This document shows, one piece after another, positions 1-42,145 of a DNA stretch of 64,000 bases. Source of the DNA: Bispira polyomma (taxonomy: Eukaryota); NCBI GenBank assembly GCA_965649765.1, contig OZ287754.1:62868001-62932000 (forward strand), read 5' to 3'. Both the position numbers and the translations under genes were made by a program. The notes under the pieces are model-generated. The model saw nothing but the letters and a program-made list of their open reading frames with translations. It was not told where the DNA came from and searched no databases. The number at the start of each line of letters is the position of its first letter. Position 1 is the first letter of the stretch.

Positions 1-160
1 AACATCAGTATCTGGTGGCACAGTTCAGTTTTATTGGTGTAAAAGCTAACAGACTATGAATAAGACCGATTATTGTGTCAGAATTGATGATATTAAGGAT
101 TTAATTTGCTTTTCTTGATACCGTTTCCTGGTATTGGTTAGTAGCCCAATAACATAACAC

Positions 161-254
161 CAACTCTGGTGGGACTCAAACCCACAGCCTCCGAATACCC
201 TATTTGCATACATTTTCTAGAAGTCCGACGCGCTATCCATTGCGCCACAGAGTC
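161..254 (-). pseudogene. trnR-TCT: tRNA-Arg(TCT), intron-containing, B-box mutant
   Basis: Cloverleaf present, but T-loop reads TTTGAG (C56T) and the T4 terminator is broken (TGTT). Confidence 0.7.
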
Positions 255-922
255 AATTGATAACAACTCAAAAGACTAACATATGCTGGAATCAAAACAT
301 CTAGTATACAAGATTAAGATAATTAAATCGCATACAGAATGAACCATTGATGTCTCTCATCTCCTCACATATAGATGTATAAATCTAAAACCTTAAAATA
401 TGACCAGTCTTCAGACAAATTTCACTGAAACAATGTTTAAATGACACTGATGTCTCTTTAGACGGATGAACCCTAATAAACAATTGAACACAATTTGTTA
501 ATTGACACTCCTACTGACAAAATAATCCTTGCACAGGTGAAGCTGGTTTAATAATTCACGTACTTGTCTAACAATGAAGCGTGCAATGTATAATAAATAT
601 GATCTTTAGAAAGCAAGACCACCACTTGTCAAAGCATAAAAGTTGAACATTATAGTTAGGCTGACATTTAAGGGTAATCATTGAAGATATATAGAAACAT
701 CAAGCTATTAACTGAACCAATTACATTGTGTTTGATTTTGATGACACTGCTAAGCAAGTTCAGCAATTAGATTCTGTAACCAAATTGAAGTTTGCCATCA
801 GATGATAGTGCTGTAATGACAGAATTTCAGGAACACTGGTGACAAGTGACTTAGTTGAGAATGTTTTAAGTCAAAGCTTTAATTTCCACATAAAAACCAT
901 GGTCAGCCACCAGGATGTTCCT

Positions 923-995
923 TGCCAGGATCCAGGATAGACCCAGGGACCTTTAGATCTTCAGTCTAACACTCTCCCAACTGAGCTATTCCAGC
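923..995 (-). pseudogene. trnF-GAA: degenerate tRNA-Phe(GAA)
   Basis: Several substitutions versus array consensus, including a destroyed T-loop (+ strand ggatagacc instead of ggattgaacc). Confidence 0.8.
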
Positions 996-1235
996 TGACA
1001 ATTAAAACTGTCTTACATCATTTGACATAAAACACCTTAGTTTGGTTCCACCTTGGGTTGACCAAAAGAGCTTCAAACATCAGTATCTGGTGGCACAGTT
1101 CAGTTTTATTGGTGTAAAAGCTAACAGACTATGAATAAGACCGATTATTGTGTCAGAATTGATGATATTAAGGATTTAATTTGCTTTTCTTGATACCGTT
1201 TCCTGGTATTGGCTAGTAGCCCAATAACATAACAC

Positions 1236-1329
1236 CAACTCTGGTGGGACTCAAACCCACAGCCTCCAAATACCCTATTTGCATACATTTTCTAGAAGTC
1301 CGACGCGCTATCCATTGCGCCACAGAGTC
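1236..1329 (-). pseudogene. trnR-TCT: tRNA-Arg(TCT), B-box mutant
   Basis: C56T plus an anticodon-stem change (ctccaaat). Confidence 0.75.
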
Positions 1330-1996
1330 AATTGATAACAACTCAAAAGACTAACATATGCTGGAATCAAAACATCTAGTATACAAGATTAAGATAATTA
1401 AATCGCATACAGAATGAACCATTGATGTCTCTCATCTCCTCACATATAGATGTATAAATCTAAAACCTTAAAATATGACCAGTCTTCAGACAAATTTCAC
1501 TGAAACAATGTTTAAATGGCACTGATGTCTCTTTAGACGGATGAACCCTAATAAACAATTGAACACAATTTGTTAATTGACACTCCTACTGACAAAATAA
1601 TCCTTGCACAGGTGAAGCTGGTTTAATAATTCACGTACTTGTCTAACAATGAAGCGTGCAATGTATAATAAATATGATCTTTAGAAAGCAAGACCACCAC
1701 TTGTCAAAGCATAAAAGTTGAACATTATAGTTAGGCTGACATTTAAGGGTAATCATTGAAGATATATAGAAACATCAAGCTATTAACTGAACCAATTACA
1801 TTGTGTTTGATTTTGATGACACTGCTAAGCAAGTTCAGCAATTAGATTCTGTAACCAAATTGAAGTTTGCCATCAGATGATAGTGCTGTAATGACAGAAT
1901 TTCAGGAACAGTGGTGACAAGAGATCTCGTTCAGAATGCTTAAGTCAAAGCTTTAATTTCCACATAAAAACCATGGTCAGCCACCAGGATGTTCCT

Positions 1997-2069
1997 TGCC
2001 AGAACCAGGGATTGAACCATGGACCTTTAGATTTTCAGTCAAATGCTCTCCCAACTGAGTTATTGCGGC
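1997..2069 (-). pseudogene. trnF-GAA: degenerate tRNA-Phe(GAA)
   Basis: Multiple stem mismatches versus consensus. Confidence 0.8.
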
Positions 2070-2162
2070 TGACAATTAAAACTATCTCACATCATTTGAC
2101 ATAAAGCACCTTTGTTTGGAAACTGTTTCATAGTATTGGTTAGTAGCCCAATAAAATAACAC

Positions 2163-2256
2163 CAACTCTGGTGGGACTCAAACCCACAGCCTCCGAATAC
2201 CCTATTTGCATACACTTTCTAGAAGTCTGACCCGCTATCCATTGTGTCACAGAGTC
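2163..2256 (-). pseudogene. trnR-TCT: degenerate tRNA-Arg(TCT)
   Basis: C56T, with D-stem and anticodon-stem changes (gtctgacccgc, tgtgtcac). Confidence 0.8.
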
Positions 2257-2385
2257 AATTGACAACAACTCAAAAGATGAACATATGCTGCAATCAAACC
2301 ATCTAGTATACAAGATTAAGATAATTAAATTACATACAGAATGAACCATTGATGTCTCTCATTTCCTCATATATATATATGTATA

Positions 2386-2642
2386 TTTGAATTTGAATTT
2401 GGATATTTAACGTCCACTCTAGTACCTTTTAGTAGCTTATTTTTGGTCGGGTAGTTGGAAACGCTGGAGGAAACACTGCATACAGTCAGGGAAGGTTCTG
2501 CACTGAAACCAGCAGCCCACAGTAAGGAACTACCACCTTTCCCACATAGGCATCGACGGGATTCAAACTCAAGGCCTCCAGAGGTGAGTGACGAGTGATT
2601 GTGAAGCGCAATGCTTGCTAACCACTAGACTACCGCGGCCCC
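2386..2642 (-). mobile_element. tRNA-derived SINE inserted in array spacer
   Basis: GGGGCCGCGG head, A-box TAGTCTAGTGG, B-box-like GTTTGAATCC, (TTCAAA)n tail. TSD ~atatatatgtata; the empty site is present in other units. Homologous copies at 49448 and 61083. Confidence 0.9.
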
Positions 2643-3207
2643 TACATATATATGTATAAATCTGAAACATATACCTTAAAATATGACCAGTCTTCAAACA
2701 AATTTCACTGAAACAATGTTTAAATGACACTGATGTCTCTTTAGAAGGATAAACCCTAGTAAACAATTGAATACAATTTGTTAATTGACACTCCTACTGA
2801 CAAAATAATCCTTGCACAGGTGAAGCTTGTTTAATAATTTACGTACTTGTCTAACAATGAAGCGTGCAATGTATAATAAATTATGCTATTTAGAAAACAA
2901 GACCACCACTTGTCAAGGCATAAAAGTTGAACATTATAGCTAGGCTTACATTGAAGGGTAATCATTAAAGATATATAGAAACATCAAGCTATTAACTGAA
3001 CCAATTACATCGTGTTTGATTTTGATGACACTGCCAAGCAAGTTCAGCAATTAGACTCTGTAACCAAATTGAAGTTTGCCATCAGATGATACGTGTTTTA
3101 ATGACAGAATTTTAGGAACACTGGTGACAAGTCACCTAGTTGAGAATGTTTTAAGTCAAAGCTTTAATTTCCACATAAAAACCATGGTCAGCCACCAGGA
3201 TGTTCCT

Positions 3208-3280
3208 TGCCGGAACCCGGGATTGAACCAGGGACCTTTAGATCTTCAGTCTAACGCTCTCCCAACTGAGCTATTCCGGC
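3208..3280 (-). tRNA. trnF-GAA: tRNA-Phe(GAA)
   Basis: GCCGGAATAGCTCAGTTGGGAGAGCGTTAGACTGAAGATCTAAAGGTCCCTGGTTCAATCCCGGGTTCCGGCA; complete 73-nt cloverleaf. Confidence 0.93.
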
Positions 3281-3519
3281 TGACAATTAAAACTGTCTTA
3301 CATCATTTGACATAAAGCACCTTAGTTTGGATCCACCTTGGGTTGACCAAAAGAGCTTCAAACATCAGTATCTGGTGGCACACTTCAGTTTTATTGGTGT
3401 AAAAGCTAACAGACAATGAATAAGACTGATTATTGTGTCGGAATTGATGATATTTAAGATTCAATTTGCTTTCTTGATACCGTTTCCTGGTATTGGCTAG
3501 TAGCCCAATAACATAACAC

Positions 3520-3613
3520 CAACTCTGGTGGGACTCAAACCCACAGCCTCCAAATACCCTATTTGCATACATTTTCTAGAAGTCCGACGCGCTATCCATT
3601 GCGCCACAGAGTC
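3520..3613 (-). pseudogene. trnR-TCT: tRNA-Arg(TCT), B-box mutant (duplicate of 1236)
   Basis: Same variants as the 1236 copy, offset 2284 bp. Confidence 0.75.
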
Positions 3614-4280
3614 AATTGATAACAACTCAAAAGACTAACATATGCTGGAATCAAAACATCTAGTATACAAGATTAAGATAATTAAATCGCATACAGAATG
3701 AACCATTGATGTCTCTCATCTCCTCACATATAGATGTATAAATCTAAAACCTTAAAATATGACCAGTCTTCAGACAAATTTCACTGAAACAATGTTTAAA
3801 TGGCACTGATGTCTCTTTAGACGGATGAACCCTAATAAACAATTGAACACAATTTGTTAATTGACACTCCTACTGACAAAATAATCCTTGCACAGGTGAA
3901 GCTGGTTTAATAATTCACGTACTTGTCTAACAATGAAGCGTGCAATGTATAATAAATATGATCTTTAGAAAGCAAGACCACCACTTGTCAAAGCATAAAA
4001 GTTGAACATTATAGTTAGGCTGACATTTAAGGGTAATCATTGAAGATATATAGAAACATCAAGCTATTAACTGAACCAATTACATTGTGTTTGATTTTGA
4101 TGACACTGCTAAGCAAGTTCAGCAATTAGATTCTGTAACCAAATTGAAGTTTGCCATCAGATGATAGTGCTGTAATGACAGAATTTCAGGAACAGTGGTG
4201 ACAAGAGATCTCGTTCAGAATGCTTAAGTCAAAGCTTTAATTTCCACATAAAAACCATGGTCAGCCACCAGGATGTTCCT

Positions 4281-4353
4281 TGCCAGAACCAGGGATTGAA
4301 CCATGGACCTTTAGATTTTCAGTCAAATGCTCTCCCAACTGAGTTATTGCGGC
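4281..4353 (-). pseudogene. trnF-GAA: degenerate tRNA-Phe(GAA) (duplicate of 1997)
   Basis: Same variants as the 1997 copy. Confidence 0.8.
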
Positions 4354-4446
4354 TGACAATTAAAACTATCTCACATCATTTGACATAAAGCACCTTTGTT
4401 TGGAAACTGTTTCATAGTATTGGTTAGTAGCCCAATAAAATAACAC

Positions 4447-4540
4447 CAACTCTGGTGGGACTCAAACCCACAGCCTCCGAATACCCTATTTGCATACACT
4501 TTCTAGAAGTCTGACCCGCTATCCATTGTGTCACAGAGTC
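4447..4540 (-). pseudogene. trnR-TCT: degenerate tRNA-Arg(TCT) (duplicate of 2163)
   Basis: Same variants as the 2163 copy. Confidence 0.8.
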
Positions 4541-4669
4541 AATTGACAACAACTCAAAAGATGAACATATGCTGCAATCAAACCATCTAGTATACAAGAT
4601 TAAGATAATTAAATTACATACAGAATGAACCATTGATGTCTCTCATTTCCTCATATATATATATGTATA

Positions 4670-4926
4670 TTTGAATTTGAATTTGGATATTTAACGTCCA
4701 CTCTAGTACCTTTTAGTAGCTTATTTTTGGTCGGGTAGTTGGAAACGCTGGAGGAAACACTGCATACAGTCAGGGAAGGTTCTGCACTGAAACCAGCAGC
4801 CCACAGTAAGGAACTACCACCTTTCCCACATAGGCATCGACGGGATTCAAACTCAAGGCCTCCAGAGGTGAGTGACGAGTGATTGTGAAGCGCAATGCTT
4901 GCTAACCACTAGACTACCGCGGCCCC
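4670..4926 (-). mobile_element. SINE copy duplicated within the 2284-bp segment
   Basis: Same sequence and flanks as 2386-2642. Confidence 0.9.
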
Positions 4927-5460
4927 TACATATATATGTATAAATCTGAAACATATACCTTAAAATATGACCAGTCTTCAAACAAATTTCACTGAAACAA
5001 TGTTTAAATGACACTGATGTCTCTTTAGAAGGATAAACCCTAGTAAACAATTGAATACAATTTGTTAATTGACACTCCTACTGACAAAATAATCCTTGCA
5101 CAGGTGAAGCTTGTTTAATAATTTACGTACTTGTCTAACAATGAAGCGTGCAATGTATAATAAATTATGCTATTTAGAAAACAAGACCACCACTTGTCAA
5201 GGCATAAAAGTTGAACATTATAGCTAGGCTTACATTGAAGGGTAATCATTAAAGATATATAGAAACATCAAGCTATTAACTGAACCAATTACATCGTGTT
5301 TGATTTTGATGACACTGCCAAGCAAGTTCAGCAATTAGACTCTGTAACCAAATTGAAGTTTGCCATCAGATGATACGTGTTTTAATGACAGAATTTTAGG
5401 AACACTGGTGACAAGTCACCTAGTTGAGAATGTTTTAAGTCAAAGCTTTAATTTCCACAT

Positions 5461-5465
5461 AAAAA
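5461..5465 (-). terminator. Pol III T5 terminator of tRNA-Phe (present in every unit)
   Basis: TTTTT on the minus strand, 26 nt after the discriminator base. Confidence 0.65.
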
Positions 5466-5491
5466 CCATGGTCAGCCACCAGGATGTTCCT

Positions 5492-5564
5492 TGCCGGAAC
5501 CCGGGATTGAACCAGGGACCTTTAGATCTTCAGTCTAACGCTCTCCCAACTGAGCTATTCCGGC
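5492..5564 (-). tRNA. trnF-GAA: tRNA-Phe(GAA)
   Basis: consensus copy. Confidence 0.93.
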
Positions 5565-5793
5565 TGACAATTAAAACTGTCTTACATCATTTGACATAAA
5601 GCACCTTAGTTTGGATCCACCTTGGGTTGACCAAAAGAGCTTCAAACATCAGTATCTGGTGGCACACTTCAGTTTTATTGGTGTAAAAGCTAACAGACAA
5701 TGAATAAGACTGATTATTGTGTCGGAATTGATGATATTTAAGATTCAATTTGCTTTCTTGATACCGTTTCATAGTATTGGCTAGTAGCCCAAT

Positions 5794-5797
5794 AAAA
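5794..5797 (-). terminator. Pol III T4 terminator of tRNA-Arg (all central units)
   Basis: TTTT on the minus strand, 6 nt after the discriminator base. Confidence 0.6.
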
Positions 5798-5803
5798 TAA
5801 CAC

Positions 5804-5897
5804 CAACTCTGGTGGGACTCGAACCCACAGCCTCCGAATACCCTATTTGCAATCACTTTCTAGAAGTCCGACGCGCTATCCATTGCGCCACAGAGTC
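5804..5897 (-). tRNA. trnR-TCT: tRNA-Arg(TCT) with 21-nt intron
   Basis: GACTCTGTGGCGCAATGGATAGCGCGTCGGACTTCTA[GAAAGTGATTGCAAATAGGGT]ATTCGGAGGCTGTGGGTTCGAGTCCCACCAGAGTTG; intron at the canonical 37/38 position. Confidence 0.92.
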
Positions 5898-5967
5898 AAT
5901 TCATAACAACTCCAAAGACCAACATATGCTGGAATCAAAACATCTAGTATACAAGATTCAGATAATT

Positions 5968-6997
5968 AAATCATATACAGAATGAACCATTGATGTCTCT
6001 CATCTCCTCACATATATATGTATAAATCTGAAACATATACCTTTAAATATGACCAGTCTTCAGACAAATTTCACTGAAACAATGTTTAAATGACACTGAT
6101 GTCTCTTTAGAAGGATAAACCCTAGTAAACAATTGAATACAATTTGTTAATTGACACTCCTACTGACAAAATAATCCTTGCACAGGTGAAGCTTGTTCAA
6201 TAATTCACGTACTTGTCTAACAATTAAGCGTGCAATGTATAATAAATTATGCTATTTAGAAAACAAGACCACTACTTGTCAAAGCATAAAATTTGAACAT
6301 TACAGCTAGTCTGACATTGAAGGGTAATCATTAAAGATATATAGAAACATCAAGCTATTAACTGAACCAATTACATCGTGTTTGATTTTGATGAAACTGC
6401 CAAGCAAGTTCAGCAATTAGACTCTGTAACCAAATTGAAGTTTGCCATCAGATGATACGTGTTTTAATGACAGAATTTTAGGAAATCATATACAGAATGA
6501 ACCATTGATGTCTCTCATCTCCTCACATATATATGTATAAATCTGAAACATATACCTTTAAATATGACCAGTCTTCAGACAAATTTCACTGAAACAATGT
6601 TTAAATGACACTGATGTCTCTTTAGAAGGATAAACCCTAGTAAACAATTGAATACAATTTGTTAATTGACACTCCTACTGACAAAATAATCCTTGCACAG
6701 GTGAAGCTTGTTCAATAATTCACGTACTTGTCTAACAATTAAGCGTGCAATGTATAATAAATTATGCTATTTAGAAAGCAAGACCACCACTTGTCAAAGC
6801 ATAAAAGTTGAACATTACAGCTAGTCTGACATTGAAGGGTAATCATTAAAGATATATAGAAACATCAAGCTATTAACTGAACCAATTACATCGTGTTTGA
6901 TTTTGATGACACTGCCAAGCAAGTTCAGCAATTAGACTCTGTAACCAAATTGAAGTTTGCCATCAGATGATACGTGTTTTAATGACAGAATTTTAGG
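5968..6997. repeat. Two copies of the 515-bp spacer subrepeat (variant A then variant B); representative unit
   Basis: 'aaatcatatacagaatg' starts at 5968 and 6483. Confidence 0.95.
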
Positions 6998-7088
6998 AAC
7001 ACTGGTGACAAGTCACCTAGTTGAGAATGTTTTAAGTCAAAGCTTTAATTTCCACATAAAAACCATGGTCAGCCACCAGGATGTTCCT

Positions 7089-7161
7089 TGCCGGAACCCG
7101 GGATTGAGCCAGGGACCTTTAGATCTTCAGTCTAACGCTCTCCCAACTGAGCTATTCCGGC
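7089..7161 (-). tRNA. trnF-GAA: tRNA-Phe(GAA), T54C variant (B-box hit, possibly non-functional)
   Basis: ggattgagcc at 7101-7110. Confidence 0.7.
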
Positions 7162-7400
7162 TGACAATTAAAACTGTCTTACATCATTTGACATAAAGCA
7201 CCTTAGTTTGGATCCACCTTGGGTTGACCAAAAGAGCTTCAAACATCAGTATCTGGTGGCACACTTCAGTTTTATTGGTGTAAAAGCTAACAGACAATGA
7301 ATAAGACTGATTATTGTGTCGGAATTGATGATATTTAAGATTCAATTTGCTTTCTTGATACCGTTTCATAGTATTGGCTAGTAGCCCAATAAAATAACAC

Positions 7401-7494
7401 CAACTCTGGTGGGACTCGAACCCACAGCCTCCGAATACCCTATTTGCAATCACTTTCTAGAAGTCCGACGCGCTATCCATTGCGCCACAGAGTC
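7401..7494 (-). tRNA. trnR-TCT: tRNA-Arg(TCT) with intron
   Basis: consensus copy. Confidence 0.92.
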
Positions 7495-8685
7495 AATTCA
7501 TAACAACTCCAAAGACCAACATATGCTGGAATCAAAACATCTAGTATACAAGATTCAGATAATTAAATCATATACAGAATGAACCATTGATGTCTCTCAT
7601 CTCCTCACATATATATGTATAAATCTGAAACATATACCTTTAAATATGACCAGTCTTCAGACAAATTTCACTGAAACAATGTTTAAATGACACTGATGTC
7701 TCTTTAGAAGGATAAACCCTAGTAAACAATTGAATACAATTTGTTAATTGACACTCCTACTGACAAAATAATCCTTGCACAGGTGAAGCTTGTTCAATAA
7801 TTCACGTACTTGTCTAACAATTAAGCGTGCAATGTATAATAAATTATGCTATTTAGAAAACAAGACCACTACTTGTCAAAGCATAAAATTTGAACATTAC
7901 AGCTAGTCTGACATTGAAGGGTAATCATTAAAGATATATAGAAACATCAAGCTATTAACTGAACCAATTACATCGTGTTTGATTTTGATGAAACTGCCAA
8001 GCAAGTTCAGCAATTAGACTCTGTAACCAAATTGAAGTTTGCCATCAGATGATACGTGTTTTAATGACAGAATTTTAGGAAATCATATACAGAATGAACC
8101 ATTGATGTCTCTCATCTCCTCACATATATATGTATAAATCTGAAACATATACCTTTAAATATGACCAGTCTTCAGACAAATTTCACTGAAACAATGTTTA
8201 AATGACACTGATGTCTCTTTAGAAGGATAAACCCTAGTAAACAATTGAATACAATTTGTTAATTGACACTCCTACTGACAAAATAATCCTTGCACAGGTG
8301 AAGCTTGTTCAATAATTCACGTACTTGTCTAACAATTAAGCGTGCAATGTATAATAAATTATGCTATTTAGAAAGCAAGACCACCACTTGTCAAAGCATA
8401 AAAGTTGAACATTACAGCTAGTCTGACATTGAAGGGTAATCATTAAAGATATATAGAAACATCAAGCTATTAACTGAACCAATTACATCGTGTTTGATTT
8501 TGATGACACTGCCAAGCAAGTTCAGCAATTAGACTCTGTAACCAAATTGAAGTTTGCCATCAGATGATACGTGTTTTAATGACAGAATTTTAGGAACACT
8601 GGTGACAAGTCACCTAGTTGAGAATGTTTTAAGTCAAAGCTTTAATTTCCACATAAAAACCATGGTCAGCCACCAGGATGTTCCT

Positions 8686-8758
8686 TGCCGGAACCCGGGA
8701 TTGAACCAGGGACCTTTAGATCTTCAGTCTAACGCTCTCCCAACTGAGCTATTCCGGC
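8686..8758 (-). tRNA. trnF-GAA: tRNA-Phe(GAA)
   Basis: consensus copy. Confidence 0.93.
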
Positions 8759-8997
8759 TGACAATTAAAACTGTCTTACATCATTTGACATAAAGCACCT
8801 TAGTTTGGATCCACCTTGGGTTGACCAAAAGAGCTTCAAACATCAGTATCTGGTGGCACACTTCAGTTTTATTGGTGTAAAAGCTAACAGACAATGAATA
8901 AGACTGATTATTGTGTCGGAATTGATGATATTTAAGATTCAATTTGCTTTCTTGATACCGTTTCATAGTATTGGCTAGTAGCCCAATAAAATAACAC

Positions 8998-9091
8998 CAA
9001 CTCTGGTGGGACTCGAACCCACAGCCTCCGAATACCCTATTTGCAATCACTTTCTAGAAGTCCGACGCGCTATCCATTGCGCCACAGAGTC
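8998..9091 (-). tRNA. trnR-TCT: tRNA-Arg(TCT) with intron
   Basis: consensus copy. Confidence 0.92.
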
Positions 9092-10282
9092 AATTCATAA
9101 CAACTCCAAAGACCAACATATGCTGGAATCAAAACATCTAGTATACAAGATTCAGATAATTAAATCATATACAGAATGAACCATTGATGTCTCTCATCTC
9201 CTCACATATATATGTATAAATCTGAAACATATACCTTTAAATATGACCAGTCTTCAGACAAATTTCACTGAAACAATGTTTAAATGACACTGATGTCTCT
9301 TTAGAAGGATAAACCCTAGTAAACAATTGAATACAATTTGTTAATTGACACTCCTACTGACAAAATAATCCTTGCACAGGTGAAGCTTGTTCAATAATTC
9401 ACGTACTTGTCTAACAATTAAGCGTGCAATGTATAATAAATTATGCTATTTAGAAAACAAGACCACTACTTGTCAAAGCATAAAATTTGAACATTACAGC
9501 TAGTCTGACATTGAAGGGTAATCATTAAAGATATATAGAAACATCAAGCTATTAACTGAACCAATTACATCGTGTTTGATTTTGATGAAACTGCCAAGCA
9601 AGTTCAGCAATTAGACTCTGTAACCAAATTGAAGTTTGCCATCAGATGATACGTGTTTTAATGACAGAATTTTAGGAAATCATATACAGAATGAACCATT
9701 GATGTCTCTCATCTCCTCACATATATATGTATAAATCTGAAACATATACCTTTAAATATGACCAGTCTTCAGACAAATTTCACTGAAACAATGTTTAAAT
9801 GACACTGATGTCTCTTTAGAAGGATAAACCCTAGTAAACAATTGAATACAATTTGTTAATTGACACTCCTACTGACAAAATAATCCTTGCACAGGTGAAG
9901 CTTGTTCAATAATTCACGTACTTGTCTAACAATTAAGCGTGCAATGTATAATAAATTATGCTATTTAGAAAGCAAGACCACCACTTGTCAAAGCATAAAA
10001 GTTGAACATTACAGCTAGTCTGACATTGAAGGGTAATCATTAAAGATATATAGAAACATCAAGCTATTAACTGAACCAATTACATCGTGTTTGATTTTGA
10101 TGACACTGCCAAGCAAGTTCAGCAATTAGACTCTGTAACCAAATTGAAGTTTGCCATCAGATGATACGTGTTTTAATGACAGAATTTTAGGAACACTGGT
10201 GACAAGTCACCTAGTTGAGAATGTTTTAAGTCAAAGCTTTAATTTCCACATAAAAACCATGGTCAGCCACCAGGATGTTCCT

Positions 10283-10355
10283 TGCCGGAACCCGGGATTG
10301 AACCAGGGACCTTTAGATCTTCAGTCTAACGCTCTCCCAACTGAGCTATTCCGGC
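10283..10355 (-). tRNA. trnF-GAA: tRNA-Phe(GAA)
   Basis: consensus copy. Confidence 0.93.
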
Positions 10356-10594
10356 TGACAATTAAAACTGTCTTACATCATTTGACATAAAGCACCTTAG
10401 TTTGGATCCACCTTGGGTTGACCAAAAGAGCTTCAAACATCAGTATCTGGTGGCACACTTCAGTTTTATTGGTGTAAAAGCTAACAGACAATGAATAAGA
10501 CTGATTATTGTGTCGGAATTGATGATATTTAAGATTCAATTTGCTTTCTTGATACCGTTTCATAGTATTGGCTAGTAGCCCAATAAAATAACAC

Positions 10595-10688
10595 CAACTC
10601 TGGTGGGACTCGAACCCACAGCCTCCGAATACCCTATTTGCAATCACTTTCTAGAAGTCCAACGCGCTATCCATTGCGCCACAGAGTC
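10595..10688 (-). tRNA. trnR-TCT: tRNA-Arg(TCT) with intron, C28T variant
   Basis: gtccaacg, variant base at 10661. Confidence 0.82.
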
Positions 10689-15125: not shown

Positions 15126-15198
15126 TGCCGGAACCCGGGATTGAACCAGGGACCTTTAGATCTTCAGTCTAACGCTCTCCCAACTGAGCTATTCCGGC
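15126..15198 (-). tRNA. trnF-GAA: tRNA-Phe(GAA)
   Basis: consensus copy. Confidence 0.93.
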
Positions 15199-30140: not shown

Positions 30141-30381
30141 TGACAATTAAAACTGTCTTACATCATTTGACATAAAGCACCTTAGTTTGGATCCACCTTG
30201 GGTTGACCAAAAGAGCTTCAAACATCAGTATCTGGTGGCACACTTCAGTTTTATTGGTGTAAAAGCTAACAGACAATGAATAAGACTGATTATTGTGTCG
30301 GAATTGATGATATTTAAGATTCAATTTGCTTTCTTGATACCGTTTCATAGTATTGGCTATGTTAGCCCAATAAAATAACAC

Positions 30382-30475
30382 CAACTCTGGTGGGACTCGA
30401 ACCCACAGCCTCCGAATACCCTATTTGCAATCACTTTCTAGAAGTCCGACGCGCTATCCATTGCGCCACAGAGTC
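30382..30475 (-). tRNA. trnR-TCT: tRNA-Arg(TCT) with intron
   Basis: consensus copy (flank has a +2 indel). Confidence 0.92.
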
Positions 30476-31666: not shown

Positions 31667-31739
31667 TGCCGGAACCCGGGATTGAACCAGGGACCTTTAG
31701 ATCTTCAGTCTAACGCTCTCCCAACTGAGCTATTCCGGC
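31667..31739 (-). tRNA. trnF-GAA: tRNA-Phe(GAA)
   Basis: consensus copy. Confidence 0.93.
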
Positions 31740-31978
31740 TGACAATTAAAACTGTCTTACATCATTTGACATAAAGCACCTTAGTTTGGATCCACCTTGG
31801 GTTGACCAAAAGAGCTTCAAACATCAGTATCTGGTGGCACACTTCAGTTTTATTGGTGTAAAAGCTAACAGACAATGAATAAGACTGATTATTGTGTCGG
31901 AATTGATGATATTTAAGATTCAATTTGCTTTCTTGATACCGTTTCATAGTATTGGCTAGTAGCCCAATAAAATAACAC

Positions 31979-32072
31979 CAACTCTGGTGGGACTCGAACC
32001 CACAGCCTCCGAATACCCTATTTGCAATCACTTTCTAGAAGTCCGACGCGCTATCCATTGCGCCACAGAGTC
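31979..32072 (-). tRNA. trnR-TCT: tRNA-Arg(TCT) with intron
   Basis: consensus copy. Confidence 0.92.
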
Positions 32073-33263
32073 AATTCATAACAACTCCAAAGACCAACAT
32101 ATGCTGGAATCAAAACATCTAGTATACAAGATTCAGATAATTAAATCATATACAGAATGAACCATTGATGTCTCTCATCTCCTCACATATATATGTATAA
32201 ATCTGAAACATATACCTTTAAATATGACCAGTCTTCAGACAAATTTCACTGAAACAATGTTTAAATGACACTGATGTCTCTTTAGAAGGATAAACCCTAG
32301 TAAACAATTGAATACAATTTGTTAATTGACACTCCTACTGACAAAATAATCCTTGCACAGGTGAAGCTTGTTCAATAATTCACGTACTTGTCTAACAATT
32401 AAGCGTGCAATGTATAATAAATTATGCTATTTAGAAAACAAGACCACTACTTGTCAAAGCATAAAATTTGAACATTACAGCTAGTCTGACATTGAAGGGT
32501 AATCATTAAAGATATATAGAAACATCAAGCTATTAACTGAACCAATTACATCGTGTTTGATTTTGATGAAACTGCCAAGCAAGTTCAGCAATTAGACTCT
32601 GTAACCAAATTGAAGTTTGCCATCAGATGATACGTGTTTTAATGACAGAATTTTAGGAAATCATATACAGAATGAACCATTGATGTCTCTCATCTCCTCA
32701 CATATATATGTATAAATCTGAAACATATACCTTTAAATATGACCAGTCTTCAGACAAATTTCACTGAAACAATGTTTAAATGACACTGATGTCTCTTTAG
32801 AAGGATAAACCCTAGTAAACAATTGAATACAATTTGTTAATTGACACTCCTACTGACAAAATAATCCTTGCACAGGTGAAGCTTGTTCAATAATTCACGT
32901 ACTTGTCTAACAATTAAGCGTGCAATGTATAATAAATTATGCTATTTAGAAAGCAAGACCACCACTTGTCAAAGCATAAAAGTTGAACATTACAGCTAGT
33001 CTGACATTGAAGGGTAATCATTAAAGATATATAGAAACATCAAGCTATTAACTGAACCAATTACATCGTGTTTGATTTTGATGACACTGCCAAGCAAGTT
33101 CAGCAATTAGACTCTGTAACCAAATTGAAGTTTGCCATCAGATGATACGTGTTTTAATGACAGAATTTTAGGAACACTGGTGACAAGTCACCTAGTTGAG
33201 AATGTTTTAAGTCAAAGCTTTAATTTCCACATAAAAACCATGGTCAGCCACCAGGATGTTCCT

Positions 33264-33336
33264 TGCCGGAACCCGGGATTGAACCAGGGACCTTTAGATC
33301 TTCAGTCTAACGCTCTCCCAACTGAGCTATTCCGGC
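33264..33336 (-). tRNA. trnF-GAA: tRNA-Phe(GAA)
   Basis: consensus copy. Confidence 0.93.
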
Positions 33337-33575
33337 TGACAATTAAAACTGTCTTACATCATTTGACATAAAGCACCTTAGTTTGGATCCACCTTGGGTT
33401 GACCAAAAGAGCTTCAAACATCAGTATCTGGTGGCACACTTCAGTTTTATTGGTGTAAAAGCTAACAGACAATGAATAAGACTGATTATTGTGTCGGAAT
33501 TGATGATATTTAAGATTCAATTTGCTTTCTTGATACCGTTTCATAGTATTGGCTAGTAGCCCAATAAAATAACAC

Positions 33576-33669
33576 CAACTCTGGTGGGACTCGAACCCAC
33601 AGCCTCCGAATACCCTATTTGCAATCACTTTCTAGAAGTCCGACGCGCTATCCATTGCGCCACAGAGTC
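33576..33669 (-). tRNA. trnR-TCT: tRNA-Arg(TCT) with intron
   Basis: consensus copy. Confidence 0.92.
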
Positions 33670-35375
33670 AATTCATAACAACTCCAAAGACCAACATATG
33701 CTGGAATCAAAACATCTAGTATACAAGATTCAGATAATTAAATCATATACAGAATGAACCATTGATGTCTCTCATCTCCTCACATATATATGTATAAATC
33801 TGAAACATATACCTTTAAATATGACCAGTCTTCAGACAAATTTCACTGAAACAACGTTTAAATGACACTGATGTCTCTTTAGAAGGATAAACCCTAGTAA
33901 ACAATTGAATACAATTTGTTAATTGACACTCCTACTGACAAAATAATCCTTGCACAGGTGAAGCTTGTTCAATAATTCACGTACTTGTCTAACAATTAAG
34001 CGTGCAATGTATAATAAATTATGCTATTTAGAAAGCAAGACCACCACTTGTCAAAGCATAAAAGTTGAACATTACAGCTAGTCTGACATTGAAGGGTAAT
34101 CATTAAAGATATATAGAAACATCAAGCTATTAACTGAACCAATTACATCGTGTTTGATTTTGATGACACTGCCAAGCAAGTTCAGCAATTAGACTCTGTA
34201 ACCAAATTGAAGTTTGCCATCAGATGATACGTGTTTTAATGACAGAATTTTAGGAAATCATATACAGAATGAACCATTGATGTCTCTCATCTCCTCACAT
34301 ATATATGTATAAATCTGAAACATATACCTTTAAATATGACCAGTCTTCAGACAAATTTCACTGAAACAATGTTTAAATGACACTGATGTCTCTTTAGAAG
34401 GATAAACCCTAGTAAACAATTGAATGCAATTTGTTAATTGACACTCCTACTGACAAAATAATCCTTGCACAGGTGAAGCTTGTTCAATAATTCACGTACT
34501 TGTCTAACAATTAAGCGTGCAATGTATAATAAATTATGCTATTTAGAAAGCAAGACCACCACTTGTCAAAGCATAAAAGTTGAACATTACAGCTAGTCTG
34601 ACATTGAAGGGTAATCATTAAAGATATATAGAAACATCAAGCTATTAACTGAACCAATTACATCGTGTTTGATTTTGATGATACTGCCAAGCAAGTTCAG
34701 CAATTAGACTCTGTAACCAAATTGAAGTTTGCCATCAGATGATACGTGTTTTAATGACAGAATTTTAGGAAATCATATACAGAATGAACCATTGATGTCT
34801 CTCATCTCCTCACATATATATGTATAAATCTGAAACATATACCTTTAAATATGACCAGTCTTCAGACAAATTTCACTGAAACAATGTTTAAATGACACTG
34901 ATGTCTCTTTAGAAGGATAAACCCTAGTAAACAATTGAATACAATTTGTTAATTGACACTCCTACTGACAAAATAATCCTTGCACAGGTGAAGCTTGTTC
35001 AATAATTCACGTACTTGTCTAACAATTAAGCGTGCAATGTATAATAAATTATGCTATTTAGAAAACAAGACCACTACTTGTCAAAGCATAAAATTTGAAC
35101 ATTACAGCTAGTCTGACATTGAAGGGTAATCATTAAAGATATATAGAAACATCAAGCTATTAACTGAACCAATTACATCGTGTTTGATTTTGATGACACT
35201 GCCAAGCAAGTTCAGCAATTAGACTCTGTAACCAAATTGAAGTTTGCCATCAGATGATACGTGTTTTAATGACAGAATTTTAGGAACACTGGTGACAAGT
35301 CACCTAGTTGAGAATGTTTTAAGTCAAAGCTTTAATTTCCACATAAAAACCATGGTCAGCCACCAGGATGTTCCT

Positions 35376-35448
35376 TGCCGGAACCCGGGATTGAACCAGG
35401 GACCTTTAGATCTTCAGTCTAACGCTCTCCCAACTGAGCTATTCCGGC
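35376..35448 (-). tRNA. trnF-GAA: tRNA-Phe(GAA)
   Basis: consensus copy. Confidence 0.93.
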
Positions 35449-35687
35449 TGACAATTAAAACTGTCTTACATCATTTGACATAAAGCACCTTAGTTTGGAT
35501 CCATCTTGGGTTGACCAAAAGAGCTTCAAACATCAGTATCTGGTGGCACACTTCAGTTTTATTGGTGTAAAAGCTAACAGACAATGAATAAGACTGATTA
35601 TTGTGTCGGAATTGATGATATTTAAGATTCAATTTGCTTTCTTGATACCGTTTCATAGTATTGGCTAGTAGCCCAATAAAATAACAC

Positions 35688-35781
35688 CAACTCTGGTGGG
35701 ACTCGAACCCACAGCCTCCGAATACCCTATTTGCAATCACTTTCTAGAAGTCCGACGCGCTATCCATTGCGCCACAGAGTC
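35688..35781 (-). tRNA. trnR-TCT: tRNA-Arg(TCT) with intron
   Basis: consensus copy; last intact Arg gene. Confidence 0.92.
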
Positions 35782-36457: not shown

Positions 36458-36530
36458 TGCCGGAACCCGGGATTGAACCAGGGACCTTTAGATCTTCAGT
36501 CTAACGCTCTCCCAACTGAGCTATTCCGGC
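36458..36530 (-). tRNA. trnF-GAA: tRNA-Phe(GAA)
   Basis: consensus copy. Confidence 0.93.
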
Positions 36531-36769
36531 TGACAATTAAAACTGTCTTACATCATTTGACATAAAGCACCTTAGTTTGGATCCACCTTGGGTTGACCAA
36601 AAGAGCTTCAAACATCAGTATCTGGTGGCACACTTCAGTTTTATTGGTGTAAAAGCTAACAGACAATGAATAAGACTGATTATTGTGTCGGAATTGATGA
36701 TATTTAAGATTCAATTTGCTTTCTTGATACCGTTTCATAGTATTGGCTAGTAGCCCAATAAAATAACAC

Positions 36770-36833
36770 CAACTCTGGTGGGACTCAAACCCACACCCTC
36801 CGAATACCCTATTTGCAATCACTTTTTAGAAGT
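36770..36833 (-). pseudogene. trnR-TCT: 5'-truncated tRNA-Arg(TCT)
   Basis: Junction agaagt|ttcactg removes the acceptor 5' strand and D arm (~202-bp deletion); also C56T. Confidence 0.9.
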
Positions 36834-37682
36834 TTCACTGAAACAATGTTTAAATGACACTGATGTCTCTTTAGAAGGATAAACCCTAGTAAACAATTGA
36901 ATACAATTTGTTAATGACACTGCCAAGCAAGTTCAGCAATTAGACTCTGTAACCAAATTGAAGTTTGCCATCAGATGATACGTGTTTTAATGACAGAATT
37001 TTAGGAAATCATATACAGAATGAACCATTGATGTCTCTCATCTCCTCACATATATATGTATAAATCTGAAACATATACCTTTAAATATGACCAGTCTTCA
37101 GACAAATTTCACTGAAACAATGTTTAAATGACACTGATGTCTCTTTAGAAGGATAAACCCTAGTAAACAATTGAATACAATTTGTTAATTGACACTCCTA
37201 CTGACAAAATAATCCTTGCACAGGTGAAGCTTGTTCAATAATTCACGTACTTGTCTAACAATTAAGCGTGCAATGTATAATAAATTATGCTATTTAGAAA
37301 ACAAGACCACTACTTGTCAAAGCATAAAATTTGAACATTACAGCTAGTCTGACATTGAAGGGTAATCATTAAAGATATATAGAAACATCAAGCTATTAAC
37401 TTTAAGCTATTAAGATATATTTAAGCTATTAAGATATATAGAAACATCAAGCTATTATTTAAGCTATTAACTGAAGCAATTACATCGTGTTTGATTTTGA
37501 TGACACTGCCAAGCAAGTTCAGCAATTAGACTCTGTAACCAAATTGAAGTTTGCCATCAGATGATACGTGTTTTAATGACAGAATTTTAGGAACACTGGT
37601 GACAAGTCACCTAGTTGAGAATGTTTTAAGTCAAAGCTTTAATTTCCACATAAAAACCATGGTCAGCCACCATGATGTTCCT

Positions 37683-37755
37683 TGCCAGAACCCGGGATTG
37701 AACCAGGGACCTTTAGATCTTCAGTCTAACGCTCTCCCAACTGAGCTATTCCGGC
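37683..37755 (-). tRNA. trnF-GAA: tRNA-Phe(GAA), C69T variant (G4:U69)
   Basis: tgccagaa instead of tgccggaa. Confidence 0.85.
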
Positions 37756-37994
37756 TGACAATTAAAACTGTCTTACATCATTTGACATAAAGCACCTTAG
37801 TTTGGATCCACCTTGGGTTGACCAAAAGAGCTTCAAACATCAGTATCTGGTGGCACACTTCAGTTTTATTGGTGTAAAAGCTAACAGACAATGAATAAGA
37901 CTGATTATTGTGTCGGAATTGATGATATTTAAGATTCAATTTGCTTTCTTGATACCGTTTCATAGTATTGGCTAGTAGCCCAATAAAATAACAC

Positions 37995-38088
37995 CAACTC
38001 TGGTGGGACTCAAACCCACACCCTCCGAATACCCTATTTGCAATCACTTTCTAGAAGTCCGACGCGCTATCCATTGCGCCACAGAGTC
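37995..38088 (-). pseudogene. trnR-TCT: tRNA-Arg(TCT), B-box C56T mutant
   Basis: gactcaaac; cacaccctcc. Confidence 0.65.
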
Positions 38089-39109
38089 AATTCATAACAA
38101 CTCCAAAGACTAATATATGCTGGAATCAAAACATCTAGTATACAAGATTCAGATAATTAAATCATATACAGAATGAACCATTGATGTCTCTCATCTCCTC
38201 ACATATATATGTATAAATCTGAAACATATACCTTTAAATATGACCAGTCTTCAGACAAATTTCACTGAAACAATGTTTAAATGACACTGATGTCTCTTTA
38301 GAAGGATAAACCCTAGTAAACAATTGAATACAATTTGTTAATGACACTGCCAAGCAAGTTCAGCAATTAGACTCTGTAACCAAATTGAAGTTTGCCATCA
38401 GATGATACGTGTTTTAATGACAGAATTTTAGGAAATCATATACAGAATGAACCATTGATGTCTCTCATCTCCTCACATATATATGTATAAATCTGAAACA
38501 TATACCTTTAAATATGACCAGTCTTCAGACAAATTTCACTGAAACAATGTTTAAATGACACTGATGTCTCTTTAGAAGGATAAACCCTAGTAAACAATTG
38601 AATACAATTTGTTAATTGACACTCCTACTGACAAAATAATCCTTGCACAGGTGAAGCTTGTTCAATAATTCACGTACTTGTCTAACAATTAAGCGTGCAA
38701 TGTATAATAAATTATGCTATTTAGAAAACAAGACCACTACTTGTCAAAGCATAAAATTTGAACATTACAGCTAGTCTGACATTGAAGGGTAATCATTAAA
38801 GATATATAGAAACATCAAGCTATTAACTTTAAGCTATTAAGATATATTTAAGCTATTAAGATATATAGAAACATCAAGCTATTATTTAAGCTATTAACTG
38901 AAGCAATTACATCGTGTTTGATTTTGATGACACTGCCAAGCAAGTTCAGCAATTAGACTCTGTAACCAAATTGAAGTTTGCCATCAGATGATACGTGTTT
39001 TAATGACAGAATTTTAGGAACACTGGTGACAAGTCACCTAGTTGAGAATGTTTTAAGTCAAAGCTTTAATTTCCACATAAAAACCATGGTCAGCCACCAG
39101 GATGTTCCT

Positions 39110-39182
39110 TGCCGGAACCTGGGATTGAACCAGGGACCTTTAGATCTTCAGTCTAACGCTCTCCCAACTGAGCTATTCCGGC
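39110..39182 (-). tRNA. trnF-GAA: tRNA-Phe(GAA), G63A variant (T51-A63 pair, structure retained)
   Basis: ggaacctggg. Confidence 0.9.
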
Positions 39183-39421
39183 TGACAATTAAAACTGTCT
39201 TACATCATTTGACATAAAGCACCTTAGTTTGGATCCACCTTGGGTTGACCAAAAGAGCTTCAAACATCAGTATCTGGTGGCACACTTCAGTTTTATTGGT
39301 GTAAAAGCTAACAGACAATGAATAAGACTGATTATTGTGTCGGAATTGATGATATTTAAGATTCAATTTGCTTTCTTGATACCGTTTCATAGTATTGGCT
39401 AGTAGCCCAATAAAATAACAC

Positions 39422-39515
39422 CAACTCTGGTGGGACTCAAACCCACACCCTCCGAATACCCTATTTGCAATCACTTTCTAGAAGTCCGACGCGCTATCCA
39501 TTGCGCCACAGAGTC
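39422..39515 (-). pseudogene. trnR-TCT: tRNA-Arg(TCT), B-box C56T mutant
   Basis: gactcaaac; cacaccctcc. Confidence 0.65.
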
Positions 39516-40465
39516 AATTCATAACAACTCCAAAGACTAATATATGCTGGAATCAAAACATCTAGTATACAAGATTCAGATAATTAAATCATATACAGAA
39601 TGAACCATTGATGTCTCTCATCTCCTCACATATATATGTATAAATCTGAAACATATACCTTTAAATATGACCAGTCTTCAGACAAATTTCACTGAAACAA
39701 TGTTTAAATGACACTGATGTCTCTTTAGAAGGATAAACCCTAGTAAACAATTGAATACAATTTGTTAATGACACTGCCAAGCAAGTTCAGCAATTAGACT
39801 CTGTAACCAAATTGAAGTTTGCCATCAGATGATACGTGTTTTAATGACAGAATTTTAGGAAATCATATACAGAATGAACCATTGATGTCTCTCATCTCCT
39901 CACATATATATGTATAAATCTGAAACATATACCTTTAAATATGACCAGTCTTCAGACAAATTTCACTGAAACAATGTTTAAATGACACTGATGTCTCTTT
40001 AGAAGGATAAACCCTAGTAAACAATTGAATACAATTTGTTAATTGACACTCCTACTGACAAAATAATCCTTGCACAGGTGAAGCTTGTTCAATAATTCAC
40101 GTACTTGTCTAACAATTAAGCGTGCAATGTATAATAAATTATGCTATTTAGAAAACAAGACCACTACTTGTCAAAGCATAAAATTTGAACATTACAGCTA
40201 GTCTGACATTGAAGGGTAATCATTAAAGATATATAGAAACATCAAGCTATTAACTGAACCAATTACATCGTGTTTGATTTTGATGACACTGCCAAGCAAG
40301 TTCAGCAATTAGACTCTGTAACCAAATTGAAGTTTGCCATCAGATGATACGTGTTTTAATGACAGAATTTTAGGAACACTGGTGACAAGTCACCTAGTTG
40401 AGAATGTTTTAAGTCAAAGCTTTAATTTCCACATAAAAACCATGGTCAGCCACCAGGATGTTCCT

Positions 40466-40538
40466 TGCCGGAACCCGGGATTGAACCAGGGACCTTTAGA
40501 TCTTCAGTCTAACGCTCTCCCAACTGAGCTATTCCGGC
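40466..40538 (-). tRNA. trnF-GAA: tRNA-Phe(GAA)
   Basis: consensus copy. Confidence 0.93.
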
Positions 40539-40777
40539 TGACAATTAAAACTGTCTTACATCATTTGACATAAAGCACCTTAGTTTGGATCCACCTTGGG
40601 TTGACCAAAAGAGCTTCAAACATCAGTATCTGGTGGCACACTTCAGTTTTATTGGTGTAAAAGCTAACAGACAATGAATAAGACTGATTATTGTGTCGGA
40701 ATTGATGATATTTAAGATTCAATTTGCTTTCTTGATACCGTTTCATAGTATTGGCTAGTAGCCCAATAAAATAACAC

Positions 40778-40871
40778 CAACTCTGGTGGGACTCAAACCC
40801 ACACCCTCCGAATACCCTATTTGCAATCACTTTCTAGAAGTCCGACGCGCTATCCATTGCGCCACAGAGTC
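40778..40871 (-). pseudogene. trnR-TCT: tRNA-Arg(TCT), B-box C56T mutant
   Basis: gactcaaac; cacaccctcc. Confidence 0.65.
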
Positions 40872-41843
40872 AATTCATAACAACTCCAAAGACTAATATA
40901 TGCTGGAATCAAAACATCTAGTATACAAGATTCAGATAATTAAATCATATACAGAATGAACCATTGATGTCTCTCATCTCCTCACATATATATGTATAAA
41001 TCTGAAACATATACCTTTAAATATGACCAGTCTTCAGACAAATTTCACTGAAACAATGTTTAAATGACACTGATGTCTCTTTAGAAGGATAAACCCTAGT
41101 AAACAATTGAATACAATTTGTTAATGACACTGCCAAGCAAGTTCAGCAATTAGACTCTGTAACCAAATTGAAGTTTGCCATCAGATGATACGTGTTTTAA
41201 TGACAGAATTTTAGGAAATCATATACAGAATGAACCATTGATGTCTCTCATCTCCTCACATATATATGTATAAATCTGAAACATATACCTTTAAATATGA
41301 CCAGTCTTCAGACAAATTTCACTGAAACAATGTTTAAATGACACTGATGTCTCTTTAGAAGGATAAACCCTAGTAAACAATTGAATACAATTTGTTAATT
41401 GACACTCCTACTGACAAAATAATCCTTGCACAGGTGAAGCTTGTTCAATAATTCACGTACTTGTCTAACAATTAAGCGTGCAATGTATAATAAATTATGC
41501 TATTTAGAAAACAAGACCACTACTTGTCAAAGCATAAAATTTGAACATTACAGCTAGTCTGACATTGAAGGGTAATCATTAAAGATATATAGAAACATCA
41601 AGCTATTAACTGAAGCAATTACATCGTGTTTGATTTTGATGACACTGCCAAGCAAGTTCAGCAATTAGACTCTGTAACCAAATTGAAGTTTGCCATCAGA
41701 TGATAAGTGTTTTAATGACAGAATTTTAGGAACACTGGTGACAAGTCACCTAGTTGAGAATGTTTTAAGTCAAAGCTTTAATTTCCACATAAAAACCATG
41801 GTCAGCCACCAGGATGTTCCTGGTCAGCCACCAGGATGTTCCT

Positions 41844-41909
41844 TGCCGGGATTGAACCAGGGACCTTTAGATCTTCAGCCTAACGCTCTCCCAACTGAGC
41901 TATTCCGGC
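41844..41909 (-). pseudogene. trnF-GAA: tRNA-Phe with 7-nt deletion across the T-stem/acceptor stem
   Basis: tgccgggattg instead of tgccggaacccgggattg; adjacent 22-bp tandem duplication. Confidence 0.9.
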
Positions 41910-42145
41910 TGACAATTAAAACTGTCTTACATCATTTGACATAAAGTACCTTAGTTTGGATCCACCTTGGGTTGACCAAAAGAGCTTCAAGTGACCTTGT
42001 TAAGAATGTTTTTAAGTCAAATCATGTCAGCCACCAGGATGCTCCTTGCCAAAAATAAAAAAAAAGTAATATACCTCTTATCGGTTGTGCAGGGGTAACA
42101 TTGTCACTTCCATCTCCTGAAATCATGGTGTTTGATTTTCGGCCC

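Follow-up and report, generated by a model that had tools for sequence, protein, structure and literature searches.

A tandem tRNA-Phe(GAA)/tRNA-Arg(TCT) gene array in Bispira polyomma and a conserved tRNA-Phe trailer predicted to clamp the precursor

Organization of the tRNA gene array

We analyzed a stretch of 64,000 nucleotides of Bispira polyomma DNA (the window; C7:62,868,001-62,932,000 in an assembly of 1.035 Gb and 75 contigs), in which a tandem array of transfer RNA (tRNA) genes for Phe(GAA) and Arg(TCT) occupies positions 1 to 41990. BLAST searches with one gene copy located 30 Phe and 30 Arg loci in the window, all on the minus strand, and 23 Phe and 19 Arg copies were identical to the reference. 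These numbers agree with those of an earlier note on this DNA, which had counted 30 loci of each gene and about 23 Phe and 19 Arg copies with the consensus sequence and had noted an oligo-T terminator after each central gene. One Phe locus (41837) and one Arg locus (36770) were truncated. When introns were allowed, ARAGORN called 53 genes: 26 for Phe(GAA), 25 for Arg(TCT) with a 21-nt intron, and 2 edge Arg genes that were mis-called as Ser. The tRNA model RF00005 gave 59 matches in the window, where no other Rfam family reached its gathering score, and an E-value scan of one array unit against Rfam returned nothing meaningful beyond RF00005. Once the flanks were fetched, the array was found to extend ~7.7 kb to the left of the window, to about C7:62,860,320. 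Thus, the array, previously put at 42 kb or more, spans ~49.7 kb (about window -7,680 to 41,990) and contains 37 Phe and 36 Arg loci.

In the order of transcription, the basic unit of 1,082 bp (35% GC) consists of an Arg gene, a spacer of 239 bp, a Phe gene, and a spacer of 676 bp (reference unit, 11880..12961, minus strand). Units of 1,597 and 2,112 bp contain one or two extra copies of a 515-bp piece of the long spacer, and an example of this internal duplication is at 6483..6999. The Arg gene of the reference unit (12192..12285) is interrupted after position 37 by a 21-nt intron (12228..12248) with the sequence given in the earlier note, and its terminator is a minimal T4 (12182..12185) that begins 7 nt past the gene and is broken in some left-edge copies. 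The Phe gene (11880..11952) is followed by a 3' trailer of 26 nt and a T5 terminator (11849..11879), the latter beginning 27 nt past the gene. The trailer comprises a variable hairpin and then a conserved block that is complementary to leader positions -4 to -1, to G1-G4, and to C68-G70. The 5' leader positions -4 to -1 (11953..11956) covary with the trailer end.

A homogeneous core of 21 units (5492..35781, minus strand), with lengths of 1,082, 1,597/1,599, and 2,112 bp, has a mean pairwise difference of 0.2% over the first 660 bp. The genes of the core are intact, and the edges are pseudogenized. The left edge (1..5491, minus strand) contains older unit types that are 4 to 7% diverged, with decayed genes, and that were re-duplicated in multi-unit blocks. 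The right edge (36458..42052, minus strand) contains rearranged units, a 5'-deleted Arg gene, a 3'-damaged Phe gene, and a terminal remnant of the Phe trailer. In the left edge, a tRNA-headed element resembling a short interspersed element (SINE) lies within a TA run of the spacer (2396..2642, minus strand), flanked by a target duplication. It was subsequently co-amplified, with a second copy at ~4680-4926 and a third in the left flank (L001), and 8 further copies with 78 to 91% identity were present in the ~0.42 Mb of fetched DNA.

Local amplification

Both spacers match this array only (40 and 67 genome matches, all inside it, in a DNA search that skips very common words). Therefore, the array is a local amplification and not the product of a mobile unit. 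A transposon-borne unit, a tRNA-derived SINE, and a tandem retroelement were each considered and rejected because the unit is not dispersed and its spacers belong to a single locus. The spacers of six other tRNA arrays had no sequence in common with the Phe/Arg unit. Rare variants in the core recur at multi-unit periods. Multi-unit duplication periods, a near-identical core, and diverged edges are the pattern expected from unequal crossing-over. From this pattern, it is likely that the array grew by unequal crossing-over.

The copy number, for which the earlier note had proposed a read-depth check, was evaluated with 71 bp of spacer in three short-read runs from two samples (runs X1 and X2 may derive from the source sample). 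In run X2, the contig with the array spacer had a depth of 546, versus 7 to 15 for contigs with unique flank sequence. The corresponding depth bins were 513 versus 12 to 27 in run X1 and 2172 versus 51 to 121 in run X3. The spacer-to-flank ratio of about 18- to 76-fold is not a copy number, but it brackets the 33 assembled copies. The short-read depth fits tens of copies, and a gross assembly artifact is unlikely. Runs X4 to X24, with a word sharing of just 0.04-0.06, gave no evidence in either direction.

Single tRNA genes and further arrays

Four dispersed Phe genes and three dispersed Arg(TCT) genes that match the arm pattern are located elsewhere in the genome, each of them alone. The four dispersed Phe genes rule out the array as the sole source of tRNA-Phe. 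The array accounts for 28 of the 32 exact genome matches to the Phe arm and for 31 of the 34 to the Arg arm. Of the three dispersed Arg(TCT) genes, two are followed immediately by a partial 3' duplicate (L030:2592-2625 and L032:2884-2921), a possible early step of tandem growth.

At least 10 other tandem tRNA arrays were found, which gives at least 11 in all, covering at least 12 amino acids and spread over six contigs (C2, C3, C7, C8, C9, and C11). The arrays listed are for Thr(TGT/CGT), Ala(TGC), Ser(TGA)/Leu(TAA)/Ile(TAT), Lys(TTT), Ala(AGC)/Ser(AGA)/Lys(CTT), Lys(CTT) with an Asn-like gene, Glu(TTC)/Gly(CCC), His, Asp (two arrays), and Gly(GCC)/Asp. Dispersed canonical copies were present for all 10 of the arrayed isoacceptors that could be checked.

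The earlier note had suggested that the array could supply stage-specific decoding of the AT-rich codons UUU/UUC and AGA. The initial matches hinted at a bias toward UNN anticodons, but codon tuning was rejected in light of the Lys(CTT), Ala(AGC), Ser(AGA), Gly(CCC), Gly(GCC), Asp, and His arrays. The arrays cover GC-rich codons too, and therefore there is no basis for the codon part of the suggestion; the stage-specific part fared better and is taken up below. The pairing of Phe with Arg(TCT) looks like two adjacent genes that were co-amplified, because arrays exist for Gly(CCC), Gly(GCC), Asp, His, Thr(CGT), Lys(CTT), Ala(AGC), and others. A literature search made largely among open-access papers found no published description of this tandem pairing, which is in line with the suggestion that it is undescribed. 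The same cassette was not recovered from metagenome contigs: none of 48 metagenome loci sharing the Phe 3' end had an Arg(TCT) gene within 1.5 kb of the Phe match.

Divergence of array copies from single genes

Five differences in the mature body separate the array genes from the dispersed genes: C47U and C51U in Phe and C6U, G67A, and C72U in Arg. As a result, array tRNA-Phe has U47 and a U51-G63 pair, and array tRNA-Arg has U6-A67 and G1-U72 in place of the C6-G67 and G1-C72 of the dispersed genes, which also have different, 15-nt introns. All five differences are C>T or G>A, four are at CpG, and all five preserve base pairing. The possibility that the array Phe gene is a decayed gene was rejected because an identical body is found in Phe genes of other organisms. 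A U51-G63 pair in Phe and a G30-U40 pair in intron-bearing Arg(UCU) are normal (PMC9023262).

Among the array copies, transitions were found at 17 of 32 CpG positions, compared with 50 of 364 other C/G positions (odds ratio of 7.1, p=9e-7). The observed/expected ratio (o/e) for CpG was 0.27 in the array spacer, 0.38-0.40 in the flanks, and 0.54 around the dispersed genes. CpG hypermutation of this kind is consistent with a footprint of methylation, and the array is likely methylated in the germ line. There was no strand asymmetry in the array that would be a sign of transcription (42/221 versus 25/175). None of 56 array genes was followed by a T-run of at least 6, compared with 62% of 32 dispersed genes, and in six other arrays the proportion was 0 to 9%. 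Stem mismatches were found in 4% of the genes in the Phe/Arg array and in 6% of the dispersed genes. The core lineage had no exon changes and 11 to 22 spacer changes, versus 22 exon and 38 to 54 spacer changes in two edge lineages (Fisher p=0.014 or 0.003). This comparison is suggestive of selection on the core lineage, and the evidence for selection overall is mixed.

Possible role of the array

The reading that we favor, at a probability of about 0.5, is that the array is a second tier of tRNA genes beside a few dispersed canonical genes, likely methylated, mostly repressed, and used in bulk at a restricted stage. It starts from the architecture of the locus, the uniqueness of the spacers, the CpG-biased mutation, the short terminators, and the intact core with decayed edges. 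Under this reading, most cells would repress the array, whose DNA would be methylated in the germ line, and its tRNAs would be drawn on in bulk at a limited stage, for example in oocytes or early embryos. Stage-specific supply is the likeliest role because of the analogy with zebrafish, in which repetitive clusters supply the maternal tRNAs and isolated genes the late ones (PMC11417395). Methylation would not preclude use of the array because RNA polymerase III (Pol III) is recruited to methylated tRNA repeats at genome activation, as cited in PMC12308677.

Several observations weigh against this reading. The arrays are scattered over six contigs, unlike the zebrafish clusters on chromosome 4. 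The flanks are also CpG poor, and thus the methylation may be regional. The G1-U72 pair of array tRNA-Arg may lower activity because the first acceptor pair helps to anchor RNase P (PMC9023262). In six other arrays, 26 to 79% of the genes have a stem mismatch, a figure inflated by an ARAGORN score laxer than that applied to the dispersed genes. When non-CpG variants are pooled over all copies of the Phe/Arg array, exons have as many as neutrality predicts (19 in 146 bp versus 127 in 936 bp, p=1.0). The core-lineage test is not significant when the expected counts are simply proportional to length (p=0.38 or 0.06), and it compares three recombining lineages, with the core having been picked when its intactness was already known. 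Finally, amplification at the left edge also included units whose genes had decayed.

The neutral density of exon variants, the amplified pseudogene units, the heavy decay in sister arrays, and the existence of dispersed canonical copies for every arrayed isoacceptor that could be checked would all be expected if the array were an inert, tRNA-bearing satellite, a once-functional pair that multiplied by blind amplification and has since fallen silent in all cells, with a core that is intact merely through youth. We consider this alternative rather unlikely. The core lineage accumulated its 11 to 22 spacer changes with no exon change, each of the five differences from the dispersed genes preserves base pairing, and the array trailer still supports both the predicted clamp described below and a re-paired hairpin. 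The five diagnostic bases and the private intron make the array forms separable from the others, and they could thus distinguish invertebrate arrays that are a maternal tier, as in zebrafish, from a dead satellite.

It is improbable that the array is a constitutive main source, giving most of the cellular tRNA-Phe and tRNA-Arg(UCU). The large share of exact genome matches that lie in the array and the identity of the core Phe body with Phe genes of other organisms are in favor of such a source. However, it is the array that has CpG hypermutation, minimal terminators, and G1-U72, and the dispersed genes that retain CpGs and long T-runs. Even less probable is a role as a chromatin organizer, which the earlier note had raised and in which the array would be a dense TFIIIC/condensin platform or a boundary and no source of tRNA, although a platform of this kind is compatible with the favored second tier. 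The array packs about 60 intact B boxes into its 50 kb, and the human 1q23.3 repeat of tRNA genes (tDNAs) has been proposed as a boundary (PMC4041453), but the core keeps its anticodon arms and acceptor stems, which goes beyond B boxes alone. The near identity of the core units raises the question of whether the copy number was inflated through mis-assembly, a reading that is largely refuted by the spacer depth, the patterned variants among copies, and the old, diverged edges.

Similarities to clustered tRNA genes in other eukaryotes

As the earlier note had recognized, this class of array is not new. Precedents are known in Arabidopsis, zebrafish, Nematostella, teleosts, and humans (PMC7544208, PMC11417395, PMC2888827, PMC4041453). 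Taken by itself, the array is a further, clean case of an arrangement already known. Clustered tDNAs of Arabidopsis are silent and CG methylated and have shorter T-runs than dispersed tDNAs (PMC7544208). The Arabidopsis SYY (Ser-Tyr-Tyr) cluster has a uniform core and decayed flanks, and it is expressed in the root cap and silent in most tissues (PMC12308677). The Bispira array shares with the SYY cluster a tandem unit of mixed isotypes, an intron-bearing gene, and head-to-tail units with intact genes. It shares with the Arabidopsis clustered tDNAs a uniform core, pseudogene-rich flanks, terminators shorter than those of dispersed genes, and the small number of changes (here two in Phe and three in Arg) that separate clustered from dispersed isodecoders. 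Whereas the Arabidopsis clusters are CG methylated, the Bispira array displays a mutational footprint only, between flanks that are CpG poor too. Unlike Arabidopsis, Bispira is an animal, and its arrays cover at least 12 amino acids, compared with four.

Xenopus oocyte-type tDNA repeats are a two-tier system of the same sort. The zebrafish maternal clusters, whose products are laid down in the egg and give way to others after gastrulation, are likewise a repetitive tier over many isotypes that stands beside isolated genes with different isodecoders (PMC11417395, PMC11075544). In contrast to the thousands of copies on one heterochromatic chromosome arm in zebrafish, Bispira has tens of copies on six contigs, and a maternal use is suggested here by analogy.

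Large tDNA clusters in Nematostella and teleosts demonstrate that tandem clusters in animals have long been known (PMC2888827). Together with the human 1q23.3 variable-number tandem repeat, they resemble the Bispira array in being tandem repeats of heterogeneous pairs with 10 to 50 units, but the isotypes differ (PMC2888827, PMC4041453). The human unit is 7.3 kb, GC rich, and contains a CTCF site, compared with the 1.1-kb unit with 35% GC in Bispira (PMC4041453). In the tRNA-short tandem repeat arrays of Entamoeba, too, the tandem units have a constant content of tRNA genes (PMC2652664). However, in contrast to Entamoeba, where nearly all tRNA genes are arrayed, the standard Bispira unit lacks intergenic short tandem repeats, dispersed genes exist, and the array has a small share of the genome.

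A conserved trailer in tRNA-Phe genes

Outside the gene body, the sequence common to the four dispersed Phe genes is limited to 4 nt of leader and 22 nt of trailer, and in one of the four a leader/trailer change is compensatory. In the array with its left extension, the trailer block complementary to the leader and acceptor stem is unchanged or nearly so in 36 copies, duplicated in one more, and degraded in the outermost. A survey with the tRNA 3' body end alone as the query yielded 48 metagenome loci and 8 more in GTDB contigs, and there was no match to the Phe motif in viral contigs. The trailer block was present in 50 of 50 Phe matches of the C68-acceptor type with enough sequence and in none of 6 with U68, where some of the 50 matches overlap or come repeatedly from one organism, with 23 distinct variable segments among them, and the motif definition derives from the same data. 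The distance from the gene end to the first T4 was 24 to 32 nt for Phe (median, 28), compared with medians of at most 9 among the remaining isotypes of these loci. A helix of at least 7 bp that includes the leader was found for 32 of 33 Phe genes. Of 103 other calls, 2 had such a helix, and one of these was in fact a Phe gene with an intron that had been mis-called. Among non-Phe calls with long trailers the count was 2 of 11.

Eukaryote-type tRNA-Phe genes were present in six of the seven GTDB contigs matched (L118-L125) and are likely host contamination of metagenome-assembled genomes. The trailer also follows a Phe(GAA) gene that was mis-called as Ile and contains a 17-nt intron (L096:310-400). 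The results suggest that several animal lineages carry the trailer because the genes are of the eukaryote type, have oligo-T ends, and are located in differing tRNA neighborhoods with GC contents of 0.31-0.56.

Comparison of 30 distinct precursors further supported pairing of the leader with the trailer. Eleven named pairs were kept in 99.4% of 330 cells, and 2 cells were unpaired. Positions -1 and -4 had both-sided changes in 15 cells, and there were 23 one-sided changes, all of them to G-U. The covariation score was reached by none of 500 shuffles, and the count of doubly changed pairs (2) was reached by 103 of 500, in a test that ignores relatedness. A DNA template switch as the origin of the leader-trailer match was disfavored because all of the one-sided changes are G-U and only 2 cells are unpaired, which favors pairing in RNA.

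Unconstrained RNAalifold predicted that the D, anticodon, and T arms are kept and that the acceptor stem is replaced by two helices, one of the leader and G1-G4 with the trailer and the other of C68-G71 with the trailer. When the three arms were fixed, the best predicted fold was below the cloverleaf in 25 of 30 sequences, by a mean of -3.7 kcal/mol versus -0.5 kcal/mol for shuffled trailers. The predicted advantage was -3.8 kcal/mol for the array and about -6 kcal/mol for the dispersed genes, and a 4-bp extension on an intact cloverleaf was the higher-energy option in the same proportion (25/30). Thus, the pairing is supported by covariation, and the fold is a prediction.

Proposed function of the trailer

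In both array and dispersed genes, the conserved trailer would pair with the leader and displace the acceptor stem at its top. This clamp would form in the nascent RNA once the trailer is transcribed, and it would keep RNases P and Z from reaching the 1-72 end. A chaperone such as La, which prevents misfolding of tRNA precursors (PMC5372738), would then refold the precursor, so that the folding step would gate processing by the two enzymes. We favor such a folding gate, a function proposed on the basis of the predicted structures. One alternative is that the trailer provides a helix beside the U-run for Pol III termination, and a helix next to the U-run is a contested model of that process. 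Another is that a 4-bp extension aids RNase P, as for mascRNA (PMC8457004).

Extension of the acceptor stem by leader-trailer pairing is known in yeast and human tRNA precursors and in the mascRNA of MALAT1, and tRNA leaders and trailers are said to have no sequence conservation (PMC8457004). As in those cases, the Phe leader is predicted to pair with the trailer beside the RNase P site. In contrast, the Phe pairing is specific to one isotype, is conserved across lineages, and includes an inserted hairpin, and the clamp is predicted to replace the acceptor stem rather than to keep and extend it with a bulge at the cleavage site. No description of a Phe trailer clamp was found in a literature search made largely among open-access papers, PMC10275265 included, and no Rfam family corresponds to it. 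The clamp appears to be undescribed.

A trailer kept in one isotype, with compensatory changes, across many lineages would point to an unrecognized control point in tRNA-Phe maturation or Pol III termination, and in this respect the clamp matters more than the array. We tentatively extend the proposal to a broad set of animals with a G5-C68 tRNA-Phe. It is possible, if somewhat doubtful, that an isotype-specific trailer serves there as a strand-invasion switch, gating maturation through a refolding step that is absent in other tRNAs, and that the Bispira arrays form a near-complete maternal tier in which the Phe copy, with its weakened (G-U) clamp, would mature faster.

Flanking sequences and other tRNA loci

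Pfam searches of 132 open reading frames in the right flank and 149/164 in the left flank found nothing to indicate that the array is within an intron of a host gene. The matches in the flanks were a lone fibrinogen-C exon, ankyrin frames, and pieces of long interspersed elements (LINEs). The fibrinogen C-terminal domain exon (PF00147, E=2e-15) is at window positions 48869-49084 on the plus strand, and none of the domain's other exons reached the threshold of the scan. The ankyrin-repeat frames, which are broken by stops or shifts, are 12 to 14 kb to the left of the array end (L003:8540-10000, plus strand). LINE-type reverse transcriptase pieces are located in the left flank (L002-L004) and at window positions 55088-55309.

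Several of the other arrays have features of their own. An array at C2:51.03-51.08 Mb (L057-L058) contains about 60 or more Lys(TTT) genes with a 19-nt intron, many of which have weakened stems. At C7:48.22 Mb, a mere 3 nt and no terminator separate a Lys(CTT) gene from an Asn-like gene downstream of it, in five repeats at intervals of 4.3 kb (L062:2380-2480 and 6679-6780). From this arrangement, the pair is a candidate for a dimeric tRNA precursor. The Ser(TGA)/Leu(TAA)/Ile(TAT) array at C3:12.38-12.44 Mb (L044-L049), in which the Ile gene has a long intron, includes 23 amplified copies of a Ser body with the Ala anticodon TGC. If expressed, these copies could place Ser at Ala codons. An isoacceptor switch is evident within the Glu/Gly array at C2:85.90-85.92 Mb, where five copies of the Gly(CCC) body have the anticodon GCC. 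The Ala(AGC)/Ser(AGA)/Lys(CTT) array at C8:47.31-47.41 Mb (L059-L061) has several inversions, and its Lys copies are without a nearby T4 terminator. Two dispersed Val(AAC) genes were also seen. Window positions 57496-59004 contain tandem repeats of 170 bp (1.9 copies) and 146 bp (6.9 copies), and short satellites like these adjoin several dispersed tRNA genes.

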